64,000 bases of DNA. Source: Eubacteriales bacterium. Lineage in GTDB: Bacteria; Bacillota; Clostridia; Oscillospirales; CAG-272. Within the stretch, counting starts at the first letter, position 1; the number at the start of each line of letters is the position of its first letter. The stretch lies in assembly GCA_045656605.1 (NCBI GenBank), contig JAZORO010000070.1:731-64730 (forward strand), written 5' to 3'. The notes beneath the pieces are model-generated. The model ran no database searches. It had not been told where the DNA came from and saw nothing but the letters and a program-made list of their open reading frames with translations. This document shows positions 1 to 10,526 of the stretch, in pieces. Made by a program: the position numbers and the translations under genes.

Positions 1-1
1 A

Positions 2-712
2 CTTGAAGTTAAAATAGAAGAGACGATTACAACTGAACAAGCACCTACGGTTCTATTGCAAGCGTTTCATTTGGCCTTTCCTAATGCTCTAATAAGTACA
101 TATTGCAAAAAAACAACAACTGATTATTATAAAACATTTTGGAAGCCCACAATTTTATTTTCTTATTATGGAGATACTGAATATGCTTGCGCCAAAAAAA
201 TCGAATTACAAATGGAAGATTTGGAACGCCTGAAAACATGGCATGAACTTTTAATTTCACATCATAAGGAGTGCAAAACCAATGCAAATCTTCATTGCTC
301 TACTTGGAATTATGCATTTAACGAATATCTTGATGCCGTATATTGTGGCATCGCAGAAAAAGAGTTCGCCCATTTGATTACTGCGTTAGAAGCTTTAGTG
401 GTAGACAGCACAACCGAATTGAATTTTAGAACTGCACTATATACTGCTACTCTTTATTCTGAAAATCCTGAAACAAGAGAATCTATATACAATTTAATTA
501 AAGACTGTTACAACTTGAGAAGCAAAAGCGTTCACGGCGATGTGAAAGATTTGAGGAAGAAATTTAAGAAGAAGGAAATCTACGATAGTCTGTTTGCCTT
601 GAAAAGAGTTGTTGCAGAGCTTCTTTTTAGGTTTTACGGCAAAGAAAAGAAAGATATTGTTTCCGTTATATTAAAATCTTTATTCAAAGCACCGAAAGCA
701 ACTATAATATGA
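2..712 (+). CDS. HEPN-like protein (Rx4H motif), 5' partial
   Basis: This frame has no stop codon back to the window edge, so the listed TTG at 56 is probably internal. The C-terminal part contains 'NLRSKSVHGD', which fits the HEPN Rx4-6H motif in an alpha-helical context. The region is AT-rich relative to the rest of the window. Confidence 0.4.
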   Translation, partial: LEVKIEETITTEQAPTVLLQAFHLAFPNALISTYCKKTTTDYYKTFWKPTILFSYYGDTEYACAKKIELQMEDLERLKTWHELLISHHKECKTNANLHCSTWNYAFNEYLDAVYCGIAEKEFAHLITALEALVVDSTTELNFRTALYTATLYSENPETRESIYNLIKDCYNLRSKSVHGDVKDLRKKFKKKEIYDSLFALKRVVAELLFRFYGKEKKDIVSVILKSLFKAPKATII

Positions 713-758
713 GTAAACAAAATCCATCAAGGATAATCTGTCCTCGATGGATTTTCTG

Positions 759-1019
759 TTATCTTAATGTTTCTATGGCAATCTGCATTCCTAATTTGAA
801 GGCATATTCGAAGATAGCTGCTTCTGCAAGGCTCATATACTCGTTCCAGCAATCGTGGAACTTCTCGAATATCTCCTTTTGTTTCTCTGTGAAGCTTTTC
901 TCCAAGTCCTCGTGATGCCTTGCCATGTAGCCGAGGAGTTCCTTCATCTCCGGCGAGTTCGTTCTGCTATCCTCTTGCGGTATGATATTTCCGTGCCATA
1001 GTTCTTTAATTACGTTCAT
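759..1019 (-). CDS. small hypothetical protein (mobile-element associated)
   Basis: The internal ATG giving MNVIKELWHGN... is preceded by GGAGGTATAACAAA, a good SD, so I trimmed the start from the listed 1067. The protein is charged and helical. I cannot assign a function. Confidence 0.5.
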   Translation of the reverse strand: MNVIKELWHGNIIPQEDSRTNSPEMKELLGYMARHHEDLEKSFTEKQKEIFEKFHDCWNEYMSLAEAAIFEYAFKLGMQIAIETLR

Positions 1020-1280
1020 TTTGTTATACCTCCGGTAGCACAACACAATACCACACAAATCTCGCAAAGTCCAGACTTTTGGAGAAATAAAATAGACTAT
1101 TTTTCATCGTCCATATTCTTTGTTTAGTGTTGACTAAATTTTGATCAGCGTAAGGAGCTTCTCTTTGTCTTAGGCATAGTAATTTTTCAAGGTTTAATGC
1201 AATATCGCAATGAGATGTACCCAGACGTGCACATCATGTCTAAAATGAGGGGTTTGGGAAAAATAAGTCGTTAAAAAGAC

Positions 1281-1309
1281 TTGAATATTGGAGAAGTTTA
1301 TGCTACAAT
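1281..1309 (+). promoter_or_regulatory. sigma-70 type promoter for the recombinase gene
   Basis: TTGAAT, a 17-nt spacer, then TACAAT with an upstream TGn (tgcTACAAT). It lies 33 nt upstream of the ATG at 1342. Confidence 0.5.
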
Positions 1310-1341
1310 CAAACCACTAAAATTTGAAAGGCGGTGAGTAT

Positions 1342-2919
1342 ATGACAGGTGTAATTTACGCTCGGTATTCCTCGGATAATCAGCGCGAGGAGTCGATTGA
1401 GGGGCAGATTCGTGAGAATACTGCTTTTGCCGAGAAGAACGGCATTGTTATCGTTGGGCACTACATAGATAGAGCCGTTTCTGCGAAAACGGACAATCGC
1501 CCCGAGTTTCAGCGTATGATACGTGACAGTGCTAAAAAGACATTTGACGTAGTCATAGTTTGGAAGCTTGACCGCTTTTCTCGTAACCGCTACGACAGTG
1601 CGAAATACAAGGCTGCCTTGAAGAAAAATAACGTTCGCGTTGTTTCGGCAACCGAGGCAATCTCGGAAGGTGCAGAGGGCATAATTCTTGAATCGGTGCT
1701 TGAAGGCATGGCGGAATATTATTCAGCCGACCTTGCGGAAAAGGTAACACGGGGGTTAACCGAGAATGCCTTAAAATGCCGTTTTAACGGTGGTAACGGT
1801 CTTCCTTACGGTTATACCGTTGACGAGGAGAAGCATTTTCAAATTGACCCCTTAAAAGCTCCCATAGTGGCTGAAATATTTGAGCGTTACGCTCACGGTG
1901 AATCTATTGCCGAGATAGTACATAGCCTGAACGCACGTGGACTCAAAACACAAAAGGGTAAAGCCTTTAATCACGGCACACTCAACCGAATGCTCGGTAA
2001 CAAATCCTATATGGGCGTGTATCACTACAACGGCATTGAAATTCCGGACGGTGTTCCTGCGATAGTGTTGGAAGATACCTTCAAGGTAGTCGAAAGGCGA
2101 ATGGCACAAAATAAGCACGCATCAGCCAAGAACAAGGCGGAAGAAAAGTACGTGCTTACAACCAAGCTTTTCTGCGGAAAGTGCCACACAATGATGGTCG
2201 GAGACTCCGCGCAAAAGAAAAACGGTAATATCTACCGCTACTACAAATGCGCCAGTGCAAAGAGGCACGAATGCGATAAAAAAGCCGTTCGCAAGGAATG
2301 GATTGAGAAGCTTGTACTGAACAAGGTTATCAAGGTCTTGTTTGATGACGAAGCACTTGATAAGATTGCTGACGAAATAGTCGCTCTGCTTGACGAGGAC
2401 AACAAGGTTATACCGCTTCTTGAGGCTCAACTCAAGGAAGTTCGCAAGTCTATCGACAACGTGATGAAGGCTATCGAGGCAGGAATTATCACTCGTTCAA
2501 CTAAGGCAAAGCTTGAGGAGCTTGAAGCCGAGGAAGAGCAAATCGAGCTTAATATTCTCAAAGAGCAGACAAGCACTCCCAAGCTCACGAAAGAACAAAT
2601 TTTATTTGCTTTGGACAAATTCCGTAAACTTGACTTAACAATCGAGGCAAATAAAGAGCGTTTGATTGACAGTCTTGTGAAATGTGTCTTACTTTATGAT
2701 GATAAGCTCGTTATAACCTTTAATTTCAAAAATGAGCCTGTAACTGTTCCCACAAGCGATGAGCTTCTAGCAATAGAAGGCAGTTCGGATATTGAAGCAT
2801 TTGCTTCACCAAAGCAATCCAATCCGAACTCAGATTGGGTTGCTTTTCTTTTTTGCGACTGTTGCGAGGAGTTTTGCTCGGCGACGCTATCGCAAAGAGC
2901 TCTGAGATACGCCGGATAG
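1342..2919 (+). CDS. large serine recombinase (resolvase/invertase N-domain plus recombinase and zinc-ribbon domains)
   Basis: The N-terminus 'VIYARYSSDNQREESIEGQ' carries the catalytic Ser motif, and 'VWKLDRFSRN' is present. There is a Cys cluster, CGKCHTMM...YYKCASAKRHEC, followed by a coiled-coil region. The start was set at the ATG after GGCGGTGAG. The C-terminal tail is atypical (see findings). Confidence 0.9.
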   Translation: MTGVIYARYSSDNQREESIEGQIRENTAFAEKNGIVIVGHYIDRAVSAKTDNRPEFQRMIRDSAKKTFDVVIVWKLDRFSRNRYDSAKYKAALKKNNVRVVSATEAISEGAEGIILESVLEGMAEYYSADLAEKVTRGLTENALKCRFNGGNGLPYGYTVDEEKHFQIDPLKAPIVAEIFERYAHGESIAEIVHSLNARGLKTQKGKAFNHGTLNRMLGNKSYMGVYHYNGIEIPDGVPAIVLEDTFKVVERRMAQNKHASAKNKAEEKYVLTTKLFCGKCHTMMVGDSAQKKNGNIYRYYKCASAKRHECDKKAVRKEWIEKLVLNKVIKVLFDDEALDKIADEIVALLDEDNKVIPLLEAQLKEVRKSIDNVMKAIEAGIITRSTKAKLEELEAEEEQIELNILKEQTSTPKLTKEQILFALDKFRKLDLTIEANKERLIDSLVKCVLLYDDKLVITFNFKNEPVTVPTSDELLAIEGSSDIEAFASPKQSNPNSDWVAFLFCDCCEEFCSATLSQRALRYAG

Positions 2920-2996
2920 ATGCAAGAGGCTTCGGAATATCCCCCCTTATCGGTGATGAGTAAAAAGGTATTTGGTCTGCTTTTATTAATTCTTTG

Positions 2997-3029
2997 TGCG
3001 CTTATCAGAAAAGCGCATTTTTCTTTTTT
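2997..3029 (+). terminator. rho-independent terminator after the recombinase
   Basis: The stem is TGCGCTT/AAGCGCA with a 7-nt loop, followed by TTTTTCTTTTTT. Confidence 0.6.
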
Positions 3030-3070
3030 CCGCATTGCAAAAGCCGCCATAGCTATTGCGCTCAAAAATA

Positions 3071-3099
3071 TTTACAAAAGCATCTTTGTGTGCTATAAT
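3071..3099 (+). promoter_or_regulatory. strong sigma-70 promoter of the six-gene operon
   Basis: TTTACA (3071-3076), a 17-nt spacer, then TATAAT (3094-3099) with an extended -10 (tgcTATAAT). A GGGGGA RBS precedes the ATG at 3132. Confidence 0.65.
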
Positions 3100-3131
3100 A
3101 AACAAAAGACAAAATTCTCGGGGGAAAATTT

Positions 3132-4289
3132 ATGAACAACGGATGCAGAATAAAAGCGGAGCTGCTCTCGTACGGGGTGCGAATCTCCGACGAGGCAATA
3201 AAGCGCTTCTCCTACCCGTACCTTGTCAAAAGGCGAGCGTACAGCAACACGGACAGTGCCGACTTCTTCTCAATAGATGCGCCTCAAGAAATCATAATTC
3301 TACCTGAGAATATCATTGCGGGCGTAACTCTCAACCACACCTCTCCGTGGCGCATTGAGTACAGCGAAAACGGCTACTATCTGCAAAACTCAAGCACTCT
3401 CGAAAGGTGCGACATCACGTTTACGTTAAAGCCCGATTTCTACGGAATGAAGATATACGACGGTATCAATGCGGAGAACGTAATAACCTATATATTCGGG
3501 CATACGCTCGGCATTTTTGTTAACACGTCCTGCTACTTCGCAACGCCGGAGCGTCACTGTAGATACTGCTCCATACGCTCCAACGGAGCACGTCCAAAGG
3601 ACAACGTAAGAGTGCTCGACCGTGAGCTTATCGCATCTGCGGTGAAGCTGGCAATCGAAAATGACAACGGATTTGTAAGCAGCATATTCATAAGCGGGGG
3701 GAATTTCACGGGCTTTGACGAAAGCTTTTCACGGTATGCGGACATTGCTAAAGGCGTTATGGAAGCCGTGCGCAATTCAGGCAGGGATATCCGAGTTATG
3801 TTAAGTGTTTTCCCGCCCGAAAACAAGGAATTGATTGCTCTTTTATGCGACACGGGTCTTGACATCCTGTTAGGAACAGAGGCGTTCAGTCCCGAAGCAT
3901 ATTCACGCTTCTGCCCCGGGAAATCAAAGGTGCTCTCAAAGGAAAGGCTCAAGGACGTGCTTCGTTACGCAGTCGATATACTTGGCAAAGGGCACGTATA
4001 CAGCATAGTAATACACGGTCTTGAGGACGACGAGGCGGTGGTCGAGGGTGTCGAAGAATACGCAAAGATGGGCGTATGCACAATTGTAAACGTGTTGCAC
4101 CTTGATCCCGGCACGGAGATTATCGATATGGGTGTATCTATACCCTCCCCCGAGTCAATCCTCAGAGTCGCAGGCAAGGTCTCAAAGATATACAGTGAAT
4201 ACGGCTTTGACTCATCAGTCGCATACGGCGGAAGAAGCTCGTTCGATGCGGAGTGCTCTGTTCTTAGTCCGGAGGAATTTGAAAAATGA
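3132..4289 (+). CDS. radical-SAM-like enzyme, copy A1 (non-canonical CX8CX2C cluster motif)
   Basis: 'NTSCYFATPERHCRYCS' places Cys at residues 134, 143 and 146, with an aromatic residue before the last Cys. 'FISGGNFTG' is GGE-like. 'HGLEDDE...VNVLHLDPGTE' resembles the C-terminal half of BioB/ThiH-type radical SAM barrels. It is a paralog of the 5443-6603 protein. Confidence 0.6.
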   Translation: MNNGCRIKAELLSYGVRISDEAIKRFSYPYLVKRRAYSNTDSADFFSIDAPQEIIILPENIIAGVTLNHTSPWRIEYSENGYYLQNSSTLERCDITFTLKPDFYGMKIYDGINAENVITYIFGHTLGIFVNTSCYFATPERHCRYCSIRSNGARPKDNVRVLDRELIASAVKLAIENDNGFVSSIFISGGNFTGFDESFSRYADIAKGVMEAVRNSGRDIRVMLSVFPPENKELIALLCDTGLDILLGTEAFSPEAYSRFCPGKSKVLSKERLKDVLRYAVDILGKGHVYSIVIHGLEDDEAVVEGVEEYAKMGVCTIVNVLHLDPGTEIIDMGVSIPSPESILRVAGKVSKIYSEYGFDSSVAYGGRSSFDAECSVLSPEEFEK

Positions 4290-5407
4290 AAATGAACAAA
4301 AGGATTTATCTTTATATAATAACCGCACTCGTCCTGCCAAGCATATTCCAAGAGGCTCTGATACGCCTCGGAGCTGTCGACGAGGAGCGCAAATGGCTTA
4401 TATACCTGATTCTTACTGCGTCGATAATTGCCGTGGTTCTGCTCGCAGAGTTCGTTATGTGGATCGTATATCTGTGTAAGACCCCATCGGTAGAAACAAT
4501 GCTTGAGAGAATCGACAGAATCGGCGAAAAATACGTTCTCTTCGGAGAAACGAAGATGTTCAACGTGCCGAACTCCGAGTTCGATATGTTCTACGCAAAG
4601 AACGTAAAAAACACCGAGAGCATATTCCGCAACGCACGCCCGCACACCGTGTATCACAGCCTATCTGCCAAAAAGCATTTGAGCTGGGTAGAATTTATTT
4701 TCTGGGATTTTTTAAGAGATTTAAAGGAAGAGCTCGGCTTTAACGTTATGATAGCCTTCCACGAGGATGAAAAAGGACGTGAAAGCGGAGAAAACACGGG
4801 CTCCGAAAGATACAAGGAAATGTGCCGTGAGTTCGCTCAAATCGCAAGAAACCTCATCGGAAAAGACATTAAGATAATAAATGAAGAGGAGTACCTCAAG
4901 CGTCACCCGAGATTATACTGCGACTTTCACAAGGTGTACGTAGAGAAGCTGCTCGAAAGCGCCAAGCTTGTTGCAGAGGGCAAGAGCGACTACAAGGGAT
5001 TCTGCCGAGGACTATCGTTTGCCGAGTCGGTCTTCCCTCTCATTGCCGCCGCAAAGAAGCACGACAGAATCTACGCAATAGACAGAGAAACGGCATTCAA
5101 TATATGGAACTCTCCGCCCCTCGATACGATAAAGAAGGAAGAGAGCATATACTTTATTCTTGCAGAAACTCTGAAGGACCCGGATAACAACCCATTGCAG
5201 ATATTCACCGCAGACGGCACGCTGAATATAACCGACGACCCCGAAACAGTAAGGAAAAAGCTCTTGGGAATGCCGGAGATTACAAGGCAGATAATGTATA
5301 ATATTATCTCGACGAATACTCCTTACACTCCGTCTGTCGAAGGATTCGATGATGTCGATACGGTTTATGAGTGCATAATGTTTATAAAGAATAAATACGC
5401 TATTTAG
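4286..5407 (+). CDS. membrane-anchored protein, copy B1; cytoplasmic domain resembles the class-Ic aaRS (TrpRS/TyrRS) catalytic fold
   Basis: There are two N-terminal hydrophobic helices. Its ATG overlaps the A1 stop (ATGA) and a GGAGGAA SD lies 8 nt upstream. Segments parallel TrpRS motifs (see findings), but HIGH and KMSKS are degenerate. Confidence 0.4.
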   Translation: MKMNKRIYLYIITALVLPSIFQEALIRLGAVDEERKWLIYLILTASIIAVVLLAEFVMWIVYLCKTPSVETMLERIDRIGEKYVLFGETKMFNVPNSEFDMFYAKNVKNTESIFRNARPHTVYHSLSAKKHLSWVEFIFWDFLRDLKEELGFNVMIAFHEDEKGRESGENTGSERYKEMCREFAQIARNLIGKDIKIINEEEYLKRHPRLYCDFHKVYVEKLLESAKLVAEGKSDYKGFCRGLSFAESVFPLIAAAKKHDRIYAIDRETAFNIWNSPPLDTIKKEESIYFILAETLKDPDNNPLQIFTADGTLNITDDPETVRKKLLGMPEITRQIMYNIISTNTPYTPSVEGFDDVDTVYECIMFIKNKYAI

Positions 5408-5442
5408 TAAATAATTATTTACATATTAAAGGATTGAGCCAA

Positions 5443-6603
5443 ATGCATACAAGCAATATAAGGCTGAAGGCCGAGATATTATCAGAAGGAATTTCTTTCT
5501 CCGCACGTGCGCTTGAGAATCTGCCGAGCGACGTACTTGTAAAAAGGCGTGCATATGGAAACCCCGATGAAATAAACGGAACAGAGCTTTCACTTCCGCA
5601 GGAGCTTGTGCTTTTGCCGGAGGGGATAACGGTGGGAATAAGCGCCTCGCTCCTTGCCCCCTTCACTGTCGACTATACGGGGGAAAGGTTTGTCCTTCTG
5701 CGTAACGACGAGTTTAAATGCGAGATAGGCTTTACAAGGTCCCCCGAGTTCTACGGCGCAATATGCGACTCGGGCGAGAAAGTCGAAAACGTGCTCACGT
5801 ACGTATCAGGACATTACCTCGGAATATTCGTAAATACGGCGTGCTACTTTGCCTCCCCCGGAAGGCAGTGCAAGTACTGCTCTATTAGAGCGAACTCCCG
5901 CCGACCCGAAGCGAATCTAAAGAAGGTTACGAAGGAATCCGCAACAAGCGCCGTGAGGCGTGCCGTTGAGCTCTCACGAGATAAATTCGATTTAGTCTTC
6001 ATCAGCGGTGGAAACTTCACAAACAGGGATGAAAATTTTGTTTATTACAGAGACATCGCCTTATCTATAAGGAGCGAACTTAATACCATCGCACCCGAAA
6101 TCGAGGTGGTCTTAAACGTTTTCCCACCGGACAAGCTTGCGCTTATTGATACGCTTTGCGGCAGTGGAATCAACGTGCTTGTCAGCACTGAGGTGTTCTC
6201 TGAAGAGGGATACGCATATCATTGCCCCGGAAAATCCAAAATATTGCCTAAAAAAAGGCTATATACCGTGCTCAAAAGGTACGTAAAAGCACTCGGAAAG
6301 GGTCATGTTTACAGCATAGTAATCCAGGGTCTCGAAAGCACGGACAGTCTTATCGATGGCATATGGGACTATGCAGAAAGGGGAGTGTGCACCGTAGTAA
6401 ACGTATTGCATCTCGACCCTGACACCGAGCTTGCGAAGGAAGGGGCCAAGCGCCCCGACGCCGACGATATACTTAGAGTAGCCAAAGAGCTTGAGAAGGT
6501 ATATTCAAAGCACGGCTTTGATACAAGGCGTATTTACGGCGGAAGAAATTCTTTTGATGCCGAATGCTCTTTAGGACTTATAAGCAAGAAAGGAGATAAC
6601 TAA
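5443..6603 (+). CDS. radical-SAM-like enzyme, copy A2 (CX8CX2C)
   Basis: 'NTACYFASPGRQCKYCS' is present. With the ATG at 5443 the three Cys fall at residues 134, 143 and 146, the same as in A1. It aligns along its full length with A1 ('GKGHVYSIVI.GLE', 'GVCT.VNVLHLDP.TE', 'YGGR.SFDAECS'). Confidence 0.6.
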   Translation: MHTSNIRLKAEILSEGISFSARALENLPSDVLVKRRAYGNPDEINGTELSLPQELVLLPEGITVGISASLLAPFTVDYTGERFVLLRNDEFKCEIGFTRSPEFYGAICDSGEKVENVLTYVSGHYLGIFVNTACYFASPGRQCKYCSIRANSRRPEANLKKVTKESATSAVRRAVELSRDKFDLVFISGGNFTNRDENFVYYRDIALSIRSELNTIAPEIEVVLNVFPPDKLALIDTLCGSGINVLVSTEVFSEEGYAYHCPGKSKILPKKRLYTVLKRYVKALGKGHVYSIVIQGLESTDSLIDGIWDYAERGVCTVVNVLHLDPDTELAKEGAKRPDADDILRVAKELEKVYSKHGFDTRRIYGGRNSFDAECSLGLISKKGDN

Positions 6604-7712
6604 TGAATAAAAAGCTGTTGATATACGTGCTTATGACATTGATTGTTCCTACGCTTACGTCTGAGCTGCTCTCAACATTCTTTGAATTCAACTTTGGCTC
6701 GCCTATCGTTAACGTGCTGATACTGTCTCTGGCGATTATCTTGCTTATACTTATAGTTGAGCTAATCGTGTATTTCTTCCCAAGATTCACGGGTAAGAGC
6801 AAGGCTGCGATAAGCACAAAAATCAAAGAAATCTCCGCTCCGTATAAGCTCCCCTCGGGCAAGCCGTTCTATACCGAGGACTCAAGACTACTCGCCGCTC
6901 TTGCAAGCAAAGACAGCTATAAAAAGCTACCTCTCTTAAGCTACACCTTCTTCTTCGTTGTGATGGTACGGGAGTATTTCAGCTGGATAGAATTCGTCAA
7001 CCTCACACTGCTTGCAAAGCTCGGGCGTGAGCTCGATATTGAGGTAGTAATAATACTCGAAAGCAACGAAAGCTCGCTCGATTCATCCACCCACAGAGCA
7101 AGAGATGCGGCGAGATTCAAGGCGGAAGAGGAAACCTACAAGAGAATTATTACCTCTATATTCGGCGGTAAAGTAACGATAAGAAGCGACTCGTATTACC
7201 GCAAATCGGATTCAAAAAAATACGCTCTTGAATTCCATACGCTTTACGTAAAACGAGTTCTCGGATACGTAAGGGAGCTTGAAGAGGGGAAAATCGATTA
7301 CTCGGCGTTAAGACACAGATTTGCATATCTTGAAGCTATATTCCCCATTATATGTGCGGCAGACAAAAACAAGAGCAAGGAAGTACTCTTCATACTCGAC
7401 AGAGAGAGCTCGAAGGAAACTTGGTCGAGCGCACCTCTGAAGGACAAAATAGAAAAAACGGGAATATACTTTATAAATGCGGCTACGCTGGATGCCGACG
7501 AGAGCACGGGGAAGAATCCCGTTTCTATGCTCAACCTGCTCGCACCGCATATAAAAATCAAAGAACAGCTAAGCGTCCTCTCCGATAAATCGAAGCAAAC
7601 GATACTCTATCTGTTACGAGCGGCGACCGACGACTACGAGCAATACGACGAGAACAAAGACGTCGAGATAACGATGATAATCCAAAAAATCAAGGCAAAG
7701 TACAACATCTGA
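6603..7712 (+). CDS. membrane-anchored protein, copy B2 (divergent paralog of B1)
   Basis: There are two N-terminal TM helices. Its start overlaps the A2 stop (TAATG) and follows an AAGGAG SD. It shares blocks with B1: 'SW(V/I)EF', 'E..FP(L/I)I.AA.K', '(I/L)DRE' and the C-terminal 'IK.KY.I'. Confidence 0.4.
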   Translation: MNKKLLIYVLMTLIVPTLTSELLSTFFEFNFGSPIVNVLILSLAIILLILIVELIVYFFPRFTGKSKAAISTKIKEISAPYKLPSGKPFYTEDSRLLAALASKDSYKKLPLLSYTFFFVVMVREYFSWIEFVNLTLLAKLGRELDIEVVIILESNESSLDSSTHRARDAARFKAEEETYKRIITSIFGGKVTIRSDSYYRKSDSKKYALEFHTLYVKRVLGYVRELEEGKIDYSALRHRFAYLEAIFPIICAADKNKSKEVLFILDRESSKETWSSAPLKDKIEKTGIYFINAATLDADESTGKNPVSMLNLLAPHIKIKEQLSVLSDKSKQTILYLLRAATDDYEQYDENKDVEITMIIQKIKAKYNI

Positions 7713-7722
7713 GGGTCTTTCT

Positions 7723-8877
7723 ATGAATATTAAAATATCCTCATCCGTAAGAGGCGTAAAGCCTATATATATGGGGGATGATTGTTTTCCCATCATATTC
7801 TCAAACATCGGTATGTCAACCGAGTGCGACTCCTTCTCCCGAGAACTTAGCAAGGTACGCGCCGTCGTCGCCGGAGGCGCAGATGCGGTATCCGACCTGA
7901 CGCTCATCGGAGATATCGAGGACGAGCAAAAAAGAATGCTCGAGAGCGTAAGCGTGCCCTTCGCATCAGTGGCGGCGTATGAAGCGTTTTCAAAGGCAAG
8001 AGGCTCCGAGGGTAAAATCCGAGCCGAGGACTTCATAAGAGTATTCGAAAAGCAGGCAGAGCGCGGAGTTGATATAATAACTCTGCACGCCACCGTGTTT
8101 TCATCGGATAATGAAGAGTTGGGAAGGGGCAAAAGAATTATTCCCTGCACCAGCCGAGGCGGAGCTATGATGCTCGAGCTGATGCGTAAGGGGGGGTACG
8201 AAAATCCCTTCTATACATACTTCGACGACATCATTTCGGTATGTAAAAAATACGGCACGTGCATAAGCCTCGGCCCCACCTATCGCCCGGGCTCTGTCGT
8301 AGACGCAGAATTTTCGGACAACCCGCATTTTACCGAGCTGTACCGTATGGCGAAGCTGGCAAAAAAAGCGACGGACGCCGGTGTCGGCATTGCAGTCGAG
8401 GGGATAGGTCACGCTCCGCTCGACAAAATCCCCGACCTTGTAAAAGAGGCGAAAAGAATAACCGGCAACGTGCCATACCGTGTTCTTAACGTAGCGACAG
8501 ATATCGCTATCGGCTTCGACCACGTTTCTTCAGCGATAGGTAGCTCCGTCGCCGTACAGTACGGCGCTGACAGCATAACAGCGGTAACACGCTCGGAGCA
8601 CCTCGGTATACCGACCGAGGTAGACCTCGTTGAAGCGGTAAGGAGCGCAAAGGTTGCGGCGTATTGCGGATATTCGGCAAGAACGGGTATACGAAAACGT
8701 GACGAGGAGATGTCACGAGCGAGAGCAGAGCGAGGCTGTATAGGGTGCTCCGAGGCAGCGCTTTTCCCCGAGCTTGTGAGCGAATATATCGAAAAAAACG
8801 GTATAGAAAAAAAGGACGCTTCCTGCACTATGTGCGGAGATTGCTGTCCGTTCGTTATTCTAGGTAAGAAAGGATAA
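7723..8877 (+). CDS. ThiC-family radical SAM enzyme, short divergent paralog
   Basis: ThiC-like blocks are present: 'NIGMSTE', 'ITLHAT', 'TSRGGA', 'ENPFYTYFDDIISVCKKYG..ISLGPTYRPG', 'EGIGHAP', 'TDIAIGFDHVSSAIG' and 'VTRSEHLGIP'. The C-terminal Cys cluster is 'CTMCGDCC'. At 384 aa it is shorter than typical ThiC. Confidence 0.7.
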   Translation: MNIKISSSVRGVKPIYMGDDCFPIIFSNIGMSTECDSFSRELSKVRAVVAGGADAVSDLTLIGDIEDEQKRMLESVSVPFASVAAYEAFSKARGSEGKIRAEDFIRVFEKQAERGVDIITLHATVFSSDNEELGRGKRIIPCTSRGGAMMLELMRKGGYENPFYTYFDDIISVCKKYGTCISLGPTYRPGSVVDAEFSDNPHFTELYRMAKLAKKATDAGVGIAVEGIGHAPLDKIPDLVKEAKRITGNVPYRVLNVATDIAIGFDHVSSAIGSSVAVQYGADSITAVTRSEHLGIPTEVDLVEAVRSAKVAAYCGYSARTGIRKRDEEMSRARAERGCIGCSEAALFPELVSEYIEKNGIEKKDASCTMCGDCCPFVILGKKG

Positions 8878-8883
8878 TGGCGT

Positions 8884-9426
8884 ATGTCTGACAGTGTTAA
8901 AGAAGAAGTATGGGATCTTTACGACGCAAGAGGTGTGAAGACCGGACTCGTCGTATCGAGGAGCGATAGGATTCCCGAGGGGCTATACCACCCGGTTGTG
9001 CACGTATGCGTCTTCAACGAAAAGGGAGAAATGCTCATACAAAAGAGAAATGCAGACAAGGCTCTTGAGCCCGACAAGTGGGACGTATCGAGCGGCGGAG
9101 GAGGTATATGCGGTGAAGAAATATACGAATCTGCCGAAAGAGAGCTCAAGGAAGAGCTCGGGATAATTGCAGATTTATCTAACACGCCCCCGCACGTTAC
9201 TCTGTTTTTTGAAACAGGATTTGATACTTATTATATTATCAAGGTAGACTCTCACACCTTCTCTCCGAGTATTCAGAAAAAAGAGATACAGGCTGTAGAT
9301 TGGGTGACAGAGGATAAGATTCTCTCTATGATAGAAAGCGGCAGCTTTGCGTCCTTCAAAAAGAGCTTTATATCTATGCTCTTCGAGCTGAAGGAAACAA
9401 GAGGCTCTCTATCATATAACGTATAA
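8884..9426 (+). CDS. Nudix hydrolase
   Basis: The Nudix box is 'GGGGICGEEIYESAERELKEELGI' (GX5EX7REUXEEXGU). It starts 6 nt after the ThiC-like stop. Confidence 0.85.
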   Translation: MSDSVKEEVWDLYDARGVKTGLVVSRSDRIPEGLYHPVVHVCVFNEKGEMLIQKRNADKALEPDKWDVSSGGGGICGEEIYESAERELKEELGIIADLSNTPPHVTLFFETGFDTYYIIKVDSHTFSPSIQKKEIQAVDWVTEDKILSMIESGSFASFKKSFISMLFELKETRGSLSYNV

Positions 9427-9448
9427 GAATAAAGCTATAACGAAAGCA

Positions 9449-9480
9449 AAGAGCGGGTGCCGTAAGGCTTACCCGCTCTT
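9449..9480. terminator. bidirectional stem-loop terminator between the convergent operon and the udk-like gene
   Basis: A 10-bp stem, AAGAGCGGGT/ACCCGCTCTT, is followed by ATTATTT. Confidence 0.55.
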
Positions 9481-9489
9481 ATTATTTCA

Positions 9490-10425
9490 TTAATACAAAT
9501 GCTCGTATATTCCGCCGGGAATGAACTCTCTTATGAGCGAGTTATCCGGTACACGGGACTCGTCTATCGGGTATATCTCCTTCATAGCCTCAAGGACTAT
9601 ACTTGCGTACGGATCCTTCTTTGCTAACGAGTCGTCGATAAGCGAGAGAGCTCTATCTCTCATTACTCCGGGCTCAAACGGGTGGAAGGTATTGAAAGCG
9701 AGGTCTGCAGTCTCCTTATATGGGTAGAGATAAACGTCCTCGGCGTTCAAAACGCCTCTCCACATCGAGAGAGTTCTCTCGGCGTCAGCGCCCCTATATA
9801 TACTGTCTCTCACCATACGCCTTACGAATCTCAGCTTCCTGCCGGAGAGAATCCTCTCTTCCCCCTTGTTTATATTCGTCGATACGCTGACGAAAAGACG
9901 CAGTATTCTATCCGTCGGTATGCCTGAATAGATTTTCGGATTCAAGGCGTGCAGACCCTCTATGATTACGCACCCGTCGGGCATTGCAGGATAGCTTCTT
10001 TCTTCAACACGCCTCCCCTCTTTAAAATCATAGCGAGGAAGTGTGAAGCTCTCGGAGTTCGCTATTTTCATAAGCGTATCCGAGATAAACGAGAGGTGCA
10101 AAGCCTCCGGACACTCGTAGTCAGGCGTTCCGTCCGAATGCATAGGGTACTCGGGCGAGCCGGAATCCTTATAGAAGTCGTCCAAAGATACGACCATAGC
10201 ATCCTCGCCCCTTGCAACTATTGCATCCTTCAACAGGTTTGCAGTAGTAGTCTTGCCCGAGCCGGACGGTCCCGCAAGCAGTATTATCTTTATTTTTTCG
10301 TGCCCCGTCACGTAGTCTGCAAGCCCACCTATCCTAAAGCGATAAGACTCCTCGGCATCCATAATCATACGGTCGGGGGCTTCTTTCGCCTCTTTGTTCA
10401 GTAAATCAACATCAATCTCAGCCAT
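9490..10425 (-). CDS. uridine kinase-family nucleoside kinase (P-loop)
   Basis: It has the Walker A motif 'LAGPSGSGKTT' and 'VIIEGLHALNP', and its length is typical for this family. The start was set at MAEIDV, which follows GGGAGGAG. Confidence 0.7.
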   Translation of the reverse strand: MAEIDVDLLNKEAKEAPDRMIMDAEESYRFRIGGLADYVTGHEKIKIILLAGPSGSGKTTTANLLKDAIVARGEDAMVVSLDDFYKDSGSPEYPMHSDGTPDYECPEALHLSFISDTLMKIANSESFTLPRYDFKEGRRVEERSYPAMPDGCVIIEGLHALNPKIYSGIPTDRILRLFVSVSTNINKGEERILSGRKLRFVRRMVRDSIYRGADAERTLSMWRGVLNAEDVYLYPYKETADLAFNTFHPFEPGVMRDRALSLIDDSLAKKDPYASIVLEAMKEIYPIDESRVPDNSLIREFIPGGIYEHLY

Positions 10426-10526
10426 AGCTCCTCCCACAATTTACAGAGAGCATAATCTTTATTCTGTCAGCTATATTTCGCTTCGCTGTACAAATATTAT
10501 ATGTACGAAAAAGGAAGGTGTGAGTG

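Follow-up and report, generated by a model that had tools for sequence, protein, structure and literature searches.

A six-gene operon located near the start of a 64,000-nucleotide stretch of DNA from an Eubacteriales bacterium (GenBank assembly GCA_045656605.1, contig JAZORO010000070.1, positions 731 to 64,730; hereafter the window, i.e., the whole stretch analysed) combines two variant radical S-adenosylmethionine (SAM) enzymes (A1 and A2), two membrane-anchored proteins with the fold of the tyrosyl- and tryptophanyl-tRNA synthetases TyrRS and TrpRS (B1 and B2), a divergent ThiC-family enzyme (C) and a Nudix pyrophosphohydrolase (D). Judged from its sequences, the cassette appears to match no described pathway or defence system, and full-text searches of the literature turned up no account in which a ThiC paralogue is joined by a TyrRS-like membrane protein, Nudix and kinases. 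The favoured reading, which we hold to be evenly balanced between right and wrong, is that the cassette may encode a nucleotide-transforming radical-SAM pathway acting on a ribotide other than aminoimidazole ribotide (AIR), with B as a membrane-tethered partner. It is read as nucleotide-transforming because C would need a 5'-monophosphorylated ribosyl substrate, and because the kinases and the Nudix or HD hydrolases found with C would set the phosphorylation state of a nucleotide. New are the B family, for which Pfam, NCBIfam, PADLOC and PHROGs hold no model, and the C clade, which is functionally undescribed. The combination had been put forward as a candidate undescribed system in an earlier note on this DNA (the original prediction), and the profile searches agree with it in that they do not put the six proteins in one characterised pathway, C failing the cut-offs and B lacking a family.

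Organization of the Operon

The six genes, as given by the list of open reading frames (ORFs) and their translations, and the signals that bracket them are the following:

3071-3099, + strand: sigma-70-type promoter TTTACA-17-TATAAT with TG extended -10, 11/12 consensus positions
3132-4289, + strand: A1, 385 aa, variant radical-SAM enzyme
4286-5407, + strand: B1, 373 aa, membrane-anchored TyrRS/TrpRS-fold protein, start 4 nt inside the end of A1 (stop overlap)
5434-6603, + strand: A2, 389 aa, variant radical-SAM enzyme, TTG start, with an alternative ATG at 5443
6603-7712, + strand: B2, 369 aa, membrane-anchored TyrRS/TrpRS-fold protein, start overlapping the A2 stop by 1 nt
7723-8877, + strand: C, 384 aa, ThiC-family radical-SAM enzyme
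8884-9426, + strand: D, 180 aa, Nudix pyrophosphohydrolase
9449-9480, no strand: GC-rich hairpin, likely a bidirectional terminator, 13 pairs followed by ATTATTT, between convergent genes

The intergenic gaps from A1 to D amount to -4, 26 (from the TTG start of A2) or 35 (from the ATG at 5443), -1, 10 and 6 nt. The promoter is the top-scoring + strand site within the first 12 kb of the window, and the ATG of A1 is preceded by a GGGGG Shine-Dalgarno sequence in a 5' untranslated region of about 33 nt. The downstream hairpin was not flagged by a simple terminator scan and was found by folding (-24.8 kcal/mol, z = -5.3, with 0/200 shuffles folding equally well). The six same-strand genes are accordingly predicted to form one transcription unit, and the spacing (with the 35-nt gap counted from the ATG at 5443), the strong promoter and the terminator are as the original prediction had described them. 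Its domain guesses, radical SAM for A1 and A2, the ThiC family for C and Nudix for D, were likewise upheld by family matches.

C Belongs to a Distinct Clade of the ThiC Family

The protein C matches PF01964 (ThiC_Rad_SAM) at 6e-96, and the ThiC models are its top matches in NCBIfam; however, it falls below all equivalog cut-offs, with 322.2 against 410 (NF009895/TIGR00190 models) and 286.6 against 460 for ThiC, and 253.8 bits against a cut-off of 700 for BzaB/BzaF (TIGR04386), and about 47 N-terminal positions of the ThiC profile are missing from it. The search for its relatives gave 210 matches at E <= 1e-20, of which the 120 listed are all about 380 aa long, and the residue counts given below were made on 118 sequences.

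The active-site residues to be compared were taken from the ThiC of A. thaliana, where AIR is contacted by Asp383, through a hydrogen bond to N3 of its imidazole, and by Tyr449, which is stacked against its C5-amino group (PMC4389238). Among the phosphate ligands, His322, Ser342, Arg343 and Arg386 are invariant in the C clade, and Tyr286 and Gly344 are kept in 115/118 and 117/118 members, respectively. Invariant as well are the ribose ligand Glu422, the SAM ligands Gly230, Glu489 and Met572, and His426 and His490 of the second metal, with the second ribose ligand Asn228 and Leu259 being variable across the clade. The C-terminal cluster cysteines are kept (Cys570 and Cys573 invariant) in the spacing CX2CX3C versus CX2CX4C of ThiC. 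The contacts to the base, in contrast, are rebuilt: the position of Asp383 is never Asp in the 118 members (P 68, T 22, A 22, S 3, C 2), that of Tyr449 is Arg in 118/118, and that of Phe448 is Tyr, again in 118/118. In the C protein of the window, Asp383 is replaced by Pro and Phe448-Tyr449 by Tyr-Arg, in comparison with GDGLRPG and PFY in the 383 and 448-449 regions of the solved ThiCs, plant and Caulobacter. By these residues, C appears to be catalytically complete with a base pocket unlike that of ThiC, and the invariance of Arg449 suggests a carbonyl- or carboxylate-bearing base as the substrate.

The surroundings of C are also unlike those of a vitamin gene. A TPP (thiamin pyrophosphate) riboswitch and a neighbourhood of thiamin genes are typical of Firmicutes thiC, without being strictly defining. 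The riboswitch scan of the window and seven loci at the Rfam gathering score returned two tRNAs only and no TPP, cobalamin or other riboswitch, thiamin or cobamide genes were not found in the flanks of any recovered locus, and neither a second thiC nor other paralogues of the operon genes occur within the 64-kb window.

One member of the clade was found in another company, at the end of a contig of the Logan assembly SRR9850981 (L024:2498-9700), where the C-clade gene (8001-9146) is one of several closely spaced genes of a same-strand operon that lacks B and Nudix. The order there is a standalone CARF protein (PADLOC CARF2, 6e-79), a 297-aa protein, an MkoA-like helicase (3.6e-79), a 475-aa protein, the ThiC-like protein and a 185-aa protein weakly similar to PurK/ATP-grasp proteins (4.6e-5). 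The 475-aa protein was considered as a cryptic B and rejected, having no transmembrane segment and not being B-like. This locus may be a separate CARF-linked system with the same enzyme clade.

B Is a Membrane-Anchored Protein of the TyrRS/TrpRS Fold

B1 and B2 share 26% identity, and both consist of a transmembrane hairpin and a TyrRS-like domain. The hydropathy profile places two hydrophobic segments, all within residues 1-65 (in B1 the helices at about 5-27 and 33-65), and lysine and arginine residues lie before the first of these segments and behind the second; from this we infer that the hairpin runs in-out-in and leaves the soluble domain on the cytoplasmic side. No family match was found for B in Pfam, NCBIfam, PADLOC or PHROG, the Pfam search on 38 members of the family gave nothing consistent (no tRNA-synt_1b and no cyclodipeptide synthase), and the sequence searched against the PDB returned noise only, with the 38-sequence profile reaching a sub-threshold TrpRS match at E 0.027.

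The fold was recognized from the AlphaFold2 (AF2) model based on 38 family members, with a predicted local distance difference test score (pLDDT) of 90 and a predicted template modelling score of 0.87. The top 50 Foldseek matches in the PDB were all TyrRS/TrpRS (E 2e-7 to 6e-6, probability 1.0, template modelling score 0.4-0.6), spanning about 310-373 alignment columns with the C-terminal helical domain included, and in the viral library BFVD the giant-virus TyrRS/TrpRS were the top matches. A cyclodipeptide synthase was found in this library at rank 7 (E 7.7e-3); the assignment of B as such an enzyme was rejected, with no Pfam match and no cyclodipeptide synthase in the top 50 PDB matches.

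B is of the class Ic aminoacyl-tRNA synthetase (aaRS) fold, with neither HIGH nor KMSKS. The family motif K-x-x-L-x-W-(I/V)-(D/E)-(F/Y) falls on HIGH, such that H42-L-G-H45 of the M. jannaschii TyrRS (MjTyrRS) stands opposite W134-V-E-F137 of B1 (family consensus N-W-I-D-Y, W-(V/I)-(D/E)-(F/Y)), and at the KMSKS position stands LQIFT, where neither Lys nor Ser is conserved. Since HIGH is replaced and KMSKS unconserved, B is regarded as a TyrRS-fold protein without the adenylation signatures, in agreement with the original prediction, in which the soluble domain of these membrane-tethered proteins was likened to a catalytically degenerate TrpRS/TyrRS fold. The Tyr-binding Gln155/Asp158 of MjTyrRS align with Ala/Lys. 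Other elements are retained, as the 'ESxFP' of B falls on the 'YP' of TyrRS, 'LDR' on GxDQ, and the segment I-x-(V/L)-x-D-x-x-x-x-I-x-x-K after KMSKS is kept (NITDDPETVRKKL versus AVDDSPEEIRAKI). Conserved in B at the positions of the TyrRS active site are W134, H159, F250-P251, D266-R267 and W274, the last invariant in 38/38, and these new residues at the old active site appear to be under purifying selection. The uniformly basic character of a tRNA binder was not seen in B, with the isoelectric point (pI) of the B1 soluble domain at 5.5 and that of the family ranging from 5.6 to 9.6.

Recurrence and Modular Make-Up of the Cassette

The B family is rare: three relatives were returned by a word-indexed search of 5.8 billion proteins, and 47 clusters (29 at E <= 1e-30) by an exhaustive profile search among 1.84 billion representatives. 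A and B were recognized in the loci by hidden Markov models, and C, D and the kinases by phmmer. The cassettes recovered are the following:

L001, metagenome: AAA_17 - A - B - A - B - C - Nudix, the six genes of the window in full
L003/L004/L008, Bacillota metagenome-assembled genome (MAG): HD - A - B - C - AAA_17, with HD in place of Nudix
L005, metagenome: AAA_17 on the divergent strand, then A - B - C - Nudix
L007, MAG GCA_965337615.1: A - B - C - Nudix
L021, Bacteroidia MAG GCA_025999875.1: 75-aa gene - AAA_17 - A - B - C - Nudix
L016/L017, metagenome: B - C - Nudix - dNK
L022/L023, Clostridia MAG: B - C - Nudix - dNK
L020, AT-rich organism, beside secE-nusG: B - C - Nudix - dNK, the dNK cut by the contig end

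The core B-C-Nudix occurs in seven further distinct contexts (Bacillota, Bacteroidia and the AT-rich lineage), and an eighth keeps A-B-C with HD. The gene order and tight spacing are constant across the cassette loci, the invariant order being B, C and a phosphohydrolase (Nudix, and once HD). B partners C in 9/10 distinct C loci and adjoins the ThiC-like gene and/or Nudix in 10/11 distinct loci, the exception being a distant homologue in L019. Because this order recurs in other genomes, the adjacency of the six genes is not fortuitous, and the recurrence that the original prediction needed is found. As to the six genes being the unit, the same six are present in L001 (54-60% identity to the window for B1 and C), and the A-B duplication is limited to the window and this one metagenome; the conserved unit is rather B-C-(Nudix or HD) with a nucleoside or nucleotide kinase, A being optional. 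The kind of kinase goes with the presence or absence of A: dNK, a deoxynucleoside kinase, is present in 3/3 cassettes without A and in 0/6 with A, AAA_17 in 4/6 with A and in 0/3 without.

Two further B loci were observed. On a 5.4-kb contig (L018:316-2016), Nudix comes directly after a B-family gene, with no ThiC-like gene in between; the contig also encodes a HAD hydrolase, on the other strand, and, at a distance of about 2 kb, the large subunit of a phage terminase. B and Nudix as a pair may function as a smaller unit, which is possibly carried by a phage. The distant member of L019 (315-3585), a protein of 468 aa that matches the profile at E 1e-6, has an amine-oxidase-type flavoprotein on one side and an opposite-strand AAA_33 kinase on the other, so that B is paired with a P-loop kinase here too, away from any ThiC-like gene. 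No relative of A or B was found in IMG/VR, and a metagenome scan for B with a narrower alignment gave one locus.

A1 and A2 Are Variant Radical-SAM Enzymes

A1 and A2 are paralogues with 47% identity, and their membership in the radical-SAM superfamily follows from the score, the three-cysteine motif and the fold. Both pass the cut-off of 125 for NF045502 variant_rSAM, with 207.9 bits (2e-61) and 207.4 bits (3e-61), respectively; for PF04055 (radical SAM, cut-off 29.5), A1 reaches 43.2 bits and A2 stays just below at 27.2. The cluster motif is CX8CX2C (C134, C143, C146) instead of the canonical CX3CX2C, and its three cysteines are invariant in 26 A relatives, as are FISGG, CPGK, the KRRxYxNxD motif, carried by the beta-rich N-terminal domain of A1, and the C-terminal YGGRSxDxE. 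The AF2 model of A (pLDDT 93) has generic fold matches (RlmN, PFL-AE, NifB, LIAS and HydG), and A has no match in the PDB by sequence or profile.

Two narrower assignments were rejected. The ThiH/NosL/HydG-type lyase, which the original prediction had suggested for A, is not supported, with no family match, only generic fold matches (HydG 16th and ThiH 26th in rank) and CX8CX2C in place of CX3CX2C. The MSMEG_0568 family (TIGR04043) aligns end-to-end at low scores, 83.2 and 58.1 bits, far below its cut-off of 303.7, and A is not a member. Database descriptions associate MSMEG_0568 with Nit1C clusters. The nitrilase, GNAT and AIRS-like neighbours of the Nit1C type were not present beside A. The cluster, a radical-SAM gene included, is described in PMC1199592.

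The A family comprises about 29 clusters. Among 5.8 billion proteins searched, B1, A2 and C were recovered, but not A1 in its exact sequence; the public record probably has another A1 start codon or lacks A1. Distant A homologues, 31-37% identical, are found in Acidobacteriota, Pedobacter, Duganella and others, with no B, C or D nearby. In Pedobacter (L011:5861-9155) and Duganella (L014:5314-11632), the A-family gene (31-36% identity) directly follows a B12-binding radical-SAM gene of 712-883 aa, and in Duganella it precedes a thymidylate-kinase-like gene and an adenylation-PCP (peptidyl carrier protein) protein. These look like different, natural-product-like clusters sharing the CX8CX2C enzyme type.

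D and the Associated Kinases

D matches PF00293 (NUDIX) with 55.3 bits (9e-15; cut-off 21.1), and its Nudix box G-x5-E-x7-RELKEELGI, GGGICGEEIYESAERELKEELGI, fits GX5EX7REUXEEXGU exactly. DR_0079, the nearest solved relative (1e-10, full length), prefers CDP and CTP; the next, YfcD, matches at 9e-9, with D staying below the YfcD equivalog cut-off (51 bits against 152). The AAA_17 kinase of the related loci resembles the (d)CMP-kinase-type and the anti-phage dCTP-deaminase kinase domains. A helical protein of 75 aa is encoded directly before AAA_17 in L005 (9622-9849, - strand) and L021 (4790-5017, + strand), with a mutual phmmer E-value of about 1e-9 to 4e-10; it is shared by a putative Bacillota locus (L005) and a Bacteroidia locus (L021) and is absent from the window, L001 and L003.

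Proposed Mechanism

In the pathway so conceived, the kinases and the Nudix or HD hydrolase would together convert a (deoxy)nucleoside or nucleotide into its 5'-monophosphate, and A, where present, might perform an extra radical step on the nucleotide, by analogy with viperin and CMPK2. C would then catalyse a ThiC-type radical rearrangement of the non-AIR ribotide, and B, which would form no aminoacyl-adenylate, would bind the product at the inner membrane face or relay it there. Because the 'AAA_17 + A' and 'dNK' modules substitute for one another, they could, speculatively, be two routes to the same, possibly deoxy-type, nucleoside monophosphate (NMP). The duplicated and strongly diverged A-B pairs of the window suggest two specificities.

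Several points weigh against this reading. The remodelled pocket of C could still take AIR, and the conservation of Asp383 and Tyr449 in ThiC rests on two solved ThiCs only. The residue map of B onto TyrRS was made from the secondary-structure register and a weak hhalign match to MjTyrRS (E 0.0015, probability 17%), not from superposed coordinates. The architecture counts come from about 10 distinct loci, mostly metagenomic. No AAA_17 or dNK is present near the cassette in the window or in L007, and the window has an unrelated uridine-kinase/PRK gene only. The parts of the cassette are, moreover, separable, because B-Nudix occurs without C in L018 and C without B in L024.

Setting of the Operon in the Window

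The features that flank the operon are the following:

1324-2919, 212 nt upstream of the operon: large serine recombinase (Resolvase + Recombinase + Zn_ribbon_recom; phrog_95 integrase, 1e-120)
2996-3018, + strand: terminator-like hairpin and T-run 3' of the serine recombinase gene, 8 pairs, tail TTTTCTTTTT
9490-10437, - strand: 315-aa uridine-kinase/PRK-family protein (PF00485, 4e-18) with an N-terminal extension, far under the udk equivalog cut-off

The hairpin at 2996-3018 is predicted to insulate the operon from transcription of the recombinase gene. The low-GC part of the window (1-3070, 40%) also contains a 218-aa ORF at 56-712 and a 102-aa minus-strand ORF, and is probably the edge of an integrated element reaching past the window start. 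The label HEPN-like, given to the ORF 56-712 in the original prediction, was not supported by Pfam or PADLOC, the sole match being a PHROG of unknown function (1.6e-8). The operon abuts this mobile element with no compositional sign of belonging to it, because its GC content of 46-49% equals that of the remainder of the window, versus 40% in the first 2 kb. On the other side, the uridine-kinase/PRK gene converges on the operon and shares the hairpin terminator with it, being the sole nucleoside-kinase-like neighbour of this copy; since it is not conserved beside the cassette at other loci, its functional link to the cassette is doubtful.

Alternative Readings

The reading that survives best next to the favoured one, a tentative possibility that we consider rather unlikely, is an anti-phage or conflict system, in which C (and A) would, by viperin-like logic, make a toxic, chain-terminating or signalling nucleotide product. 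The roles, just as tentatively, would then be the supply or activation by the kinase, the limiting of self-toxicity or degradation of the signal by Nudix, and a membrane effector or sensor in B. The chemical core is common to the metabolite-synthesis and anti-phage hypotheses. In favour of the conflict reading, the cassette is rare and scattered over several phyla, at a genomic position that differs per locus, and mobile neighbours are seen in the window (serine recombinase), L016 (integrase fragment and tRNA) and L018 (terminase). The flanks of L005 hold FRG/PDC-S15, an SNF2 protein (DpdE/ZorD-like) and PD-Lambda-3_B, and the C-clade gene of L024 stands in an operon with a CARF protein and the MkoA-like helicase. 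The pairing of radical-SAM and CMP-kinase-like genes echoes viperin-CMPK2, and the transmembrane hairpin with a degenerate enzyme fold in B is an architecture typical of effectors. However, A1, A2, B1, B2 and C have no match in PADLOC-DB v2, including pVip, and A, B and C no PHROG, with D matching weakly the candidate PDC-S07 only (4.4e-8); A and B have no relatives in IMG/VR. PADLOC gave one weak match to a helix-turn-helix domain for ten unannotated flanking ORFs of six loci, the GC content of the operon is host-like, there is no obvious phage-sensing component, and the ThiC-type enzymes are generally slow and oxygen-sensitive. The defence-island context pointed to in the original prediction is not general, because most loci have housekeeping genes as neighbours (gyrAB, RNase J, relA, recF, secE-nusG), though the defence-like flanks of L005 and the operon of L024 fit it. 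In a more specific form, which we find doubtful, the cassette would be a conflict system of a new, nucleotide-based type, anti-phage or antimicrobial, where a third functional branch of the ThiC superfamily rearranges a canonical (d)NMP, possibly cytidine, to a new heterocycle that the TyrRS-fold B senses or delivers, with interchangeable inputs feeding the core; the link to CARF and the MkoA-like helicase would then tie the clade to cyclic-oligoadenylate signalling.

Improbable, in our estimation, is a divergent isofunctional vitamin pathway, in which C would make 4-amino-5-hydroxymethyl-2-methylpyrimidine phosphate (HMP-P), the thiamin pyrimidine, or 5-hydroxybenzimidazole, a precursor of the cobamide lower ligand, from AIR, with A and B as accessory proteins; the kinase would be an equally improbable salvage enzyme for aminoimidazole riboside or HMP, and Nudix would trim HMP-PP or damaged thiamin diphosphates. 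The PF01964 match, the rank of the ThiC models in NCBIfam and the conservation of the catalytic, SAM, metal and phosphate ligands are all in favour of it; some database entries also call members of the clade 'phosphomethylpyrimidine synthase', and AIR is the substrate of PurK, to which the protein after C in L024 is weakly similar. The reading, however, is disfavoured by the scores below every equivalog cut-off, by the replacement of both AIR-base contacts in 118/118 clade members, by the cluster spacing, by the lack of TPP and cobalamin riboswitches in the window and seven loci and of other thiamin or cobamide genes near any recovered locus, and by the TyrRS-like membrane partner, which has no role in either known pathway.

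The weakest, and hardly probable, is an amino-acid- or tRNA-centred system, in which B would bind an aromatic amino acid, aminoacyl-tRNA or tRNA to be modified by A at the membrane: the entire soluble part of B with its helical C-terminal domain superposes on the archaeal TyrRS/TrpRS, the cyclodipeptide synthase is at rank 7 in the viral library, RlmN, an RNA methylase, is among the best fold matches of A (310 columns), and A and B are translationally coupled, but HIGH and KMSKS are absent, the Tyr-binding residues are changed to Ala/Lys, tRNA-synt_1b and cyclodipeptide synthase Pfam matches are missing in 38 B members, the B1 soluble domain is acidic, and B occurs without A in three loci and near the ThiC-like gene or Nudix in 10/11. 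The analogy with EpmA and EpmB, raised in the original prediction, is disfavoured as well, since EpmA is a class II (LysRS-like) paralogue versus the class I TyrRS fold of B, devoid of adenylation motifs, and lysine-2,3-aminomutase-type enzymes such as EpmB are not among the family or fold matches of A.

Relation to Known Systems and Significance

We rate the cassette as a relative of the operons in which radical-SAM enzymes of the ThiC/BzaF or viperin type transform nucleotides. With ThiC and BzaF, C shares the fold family and identical phosphate, ribose, SAM and metal ligands and cluster cysteines; it differs in the N-terminus, base contacts, cluster spacing, riboswitch, neighbours and the B partner. 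With viperin-CMPK2 and the prokaryotic viperins, the common logic is a radical-SAM gene beside a P-loop NMP-kinase-like gene and nucleotide phosphohydrolases, and the pairing of the A family with a P-loop kinase recurs in two unrelated contexts; A and C are, however, not homologues of viperin (no pVip match, and CX8CX2C in A versus CX3CX2C). B shares with the class Ic TyrRS/TrpRS the fold, FP (= YP), LDR (= GxDQ) and the post-KMSKS segment, and differs from them in the loss of HIGH, KMSKS and the Tyr-pocket residues and the gain of the two-helix membrane hairpin; its fold match to the cyclodipeptide synthases is far weaker than that to TyrRS. The two-transmembrane effectors of CBASS (cyclic-oligonucleotide-based antiphage signalling), Pycsar (pyrimidine cyclase system for antiphage resistance) and type III CRISPR may be analogous to B in the N-terminal hairpin and the cytoplasmic degenerate enzyme or ligand-binding fold, but B is unrelated to the SAVED, CARF and cNMP (cyclic nucleoside monophosphate)-binding sensor domains, and the cassette has no cyclase. 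D aligns over its full length with DR_0079 and YfcD and has the canonical Nudix box.

The radical rearrangement of ThiC is among the most complex known, and, to our knowledge, the ThiC superfamily has only two assigned functions, the synthesis of HMP-P and of 5-hydroxybenzimidazole, both from AIR. The intact catalysis residues and the rebuilt base pocket of the C clade, with at least 118 sequence clusters, therefore predict a third substrate or product of the superfamily. For the aaRS scaffold, B is an unusual fate, having lost the adenylation motifs and acquired new conserved active-site residues and a membrane tether. The chemistry may be of relevance to antivirals, antimetabolites and new cofactors, and the modular input together with the CARF-linked ThiC clade suggests an unexplored nucleotide-derived chemistry in anaerobes, including the gut-type Clostridia and Bacteroidia.

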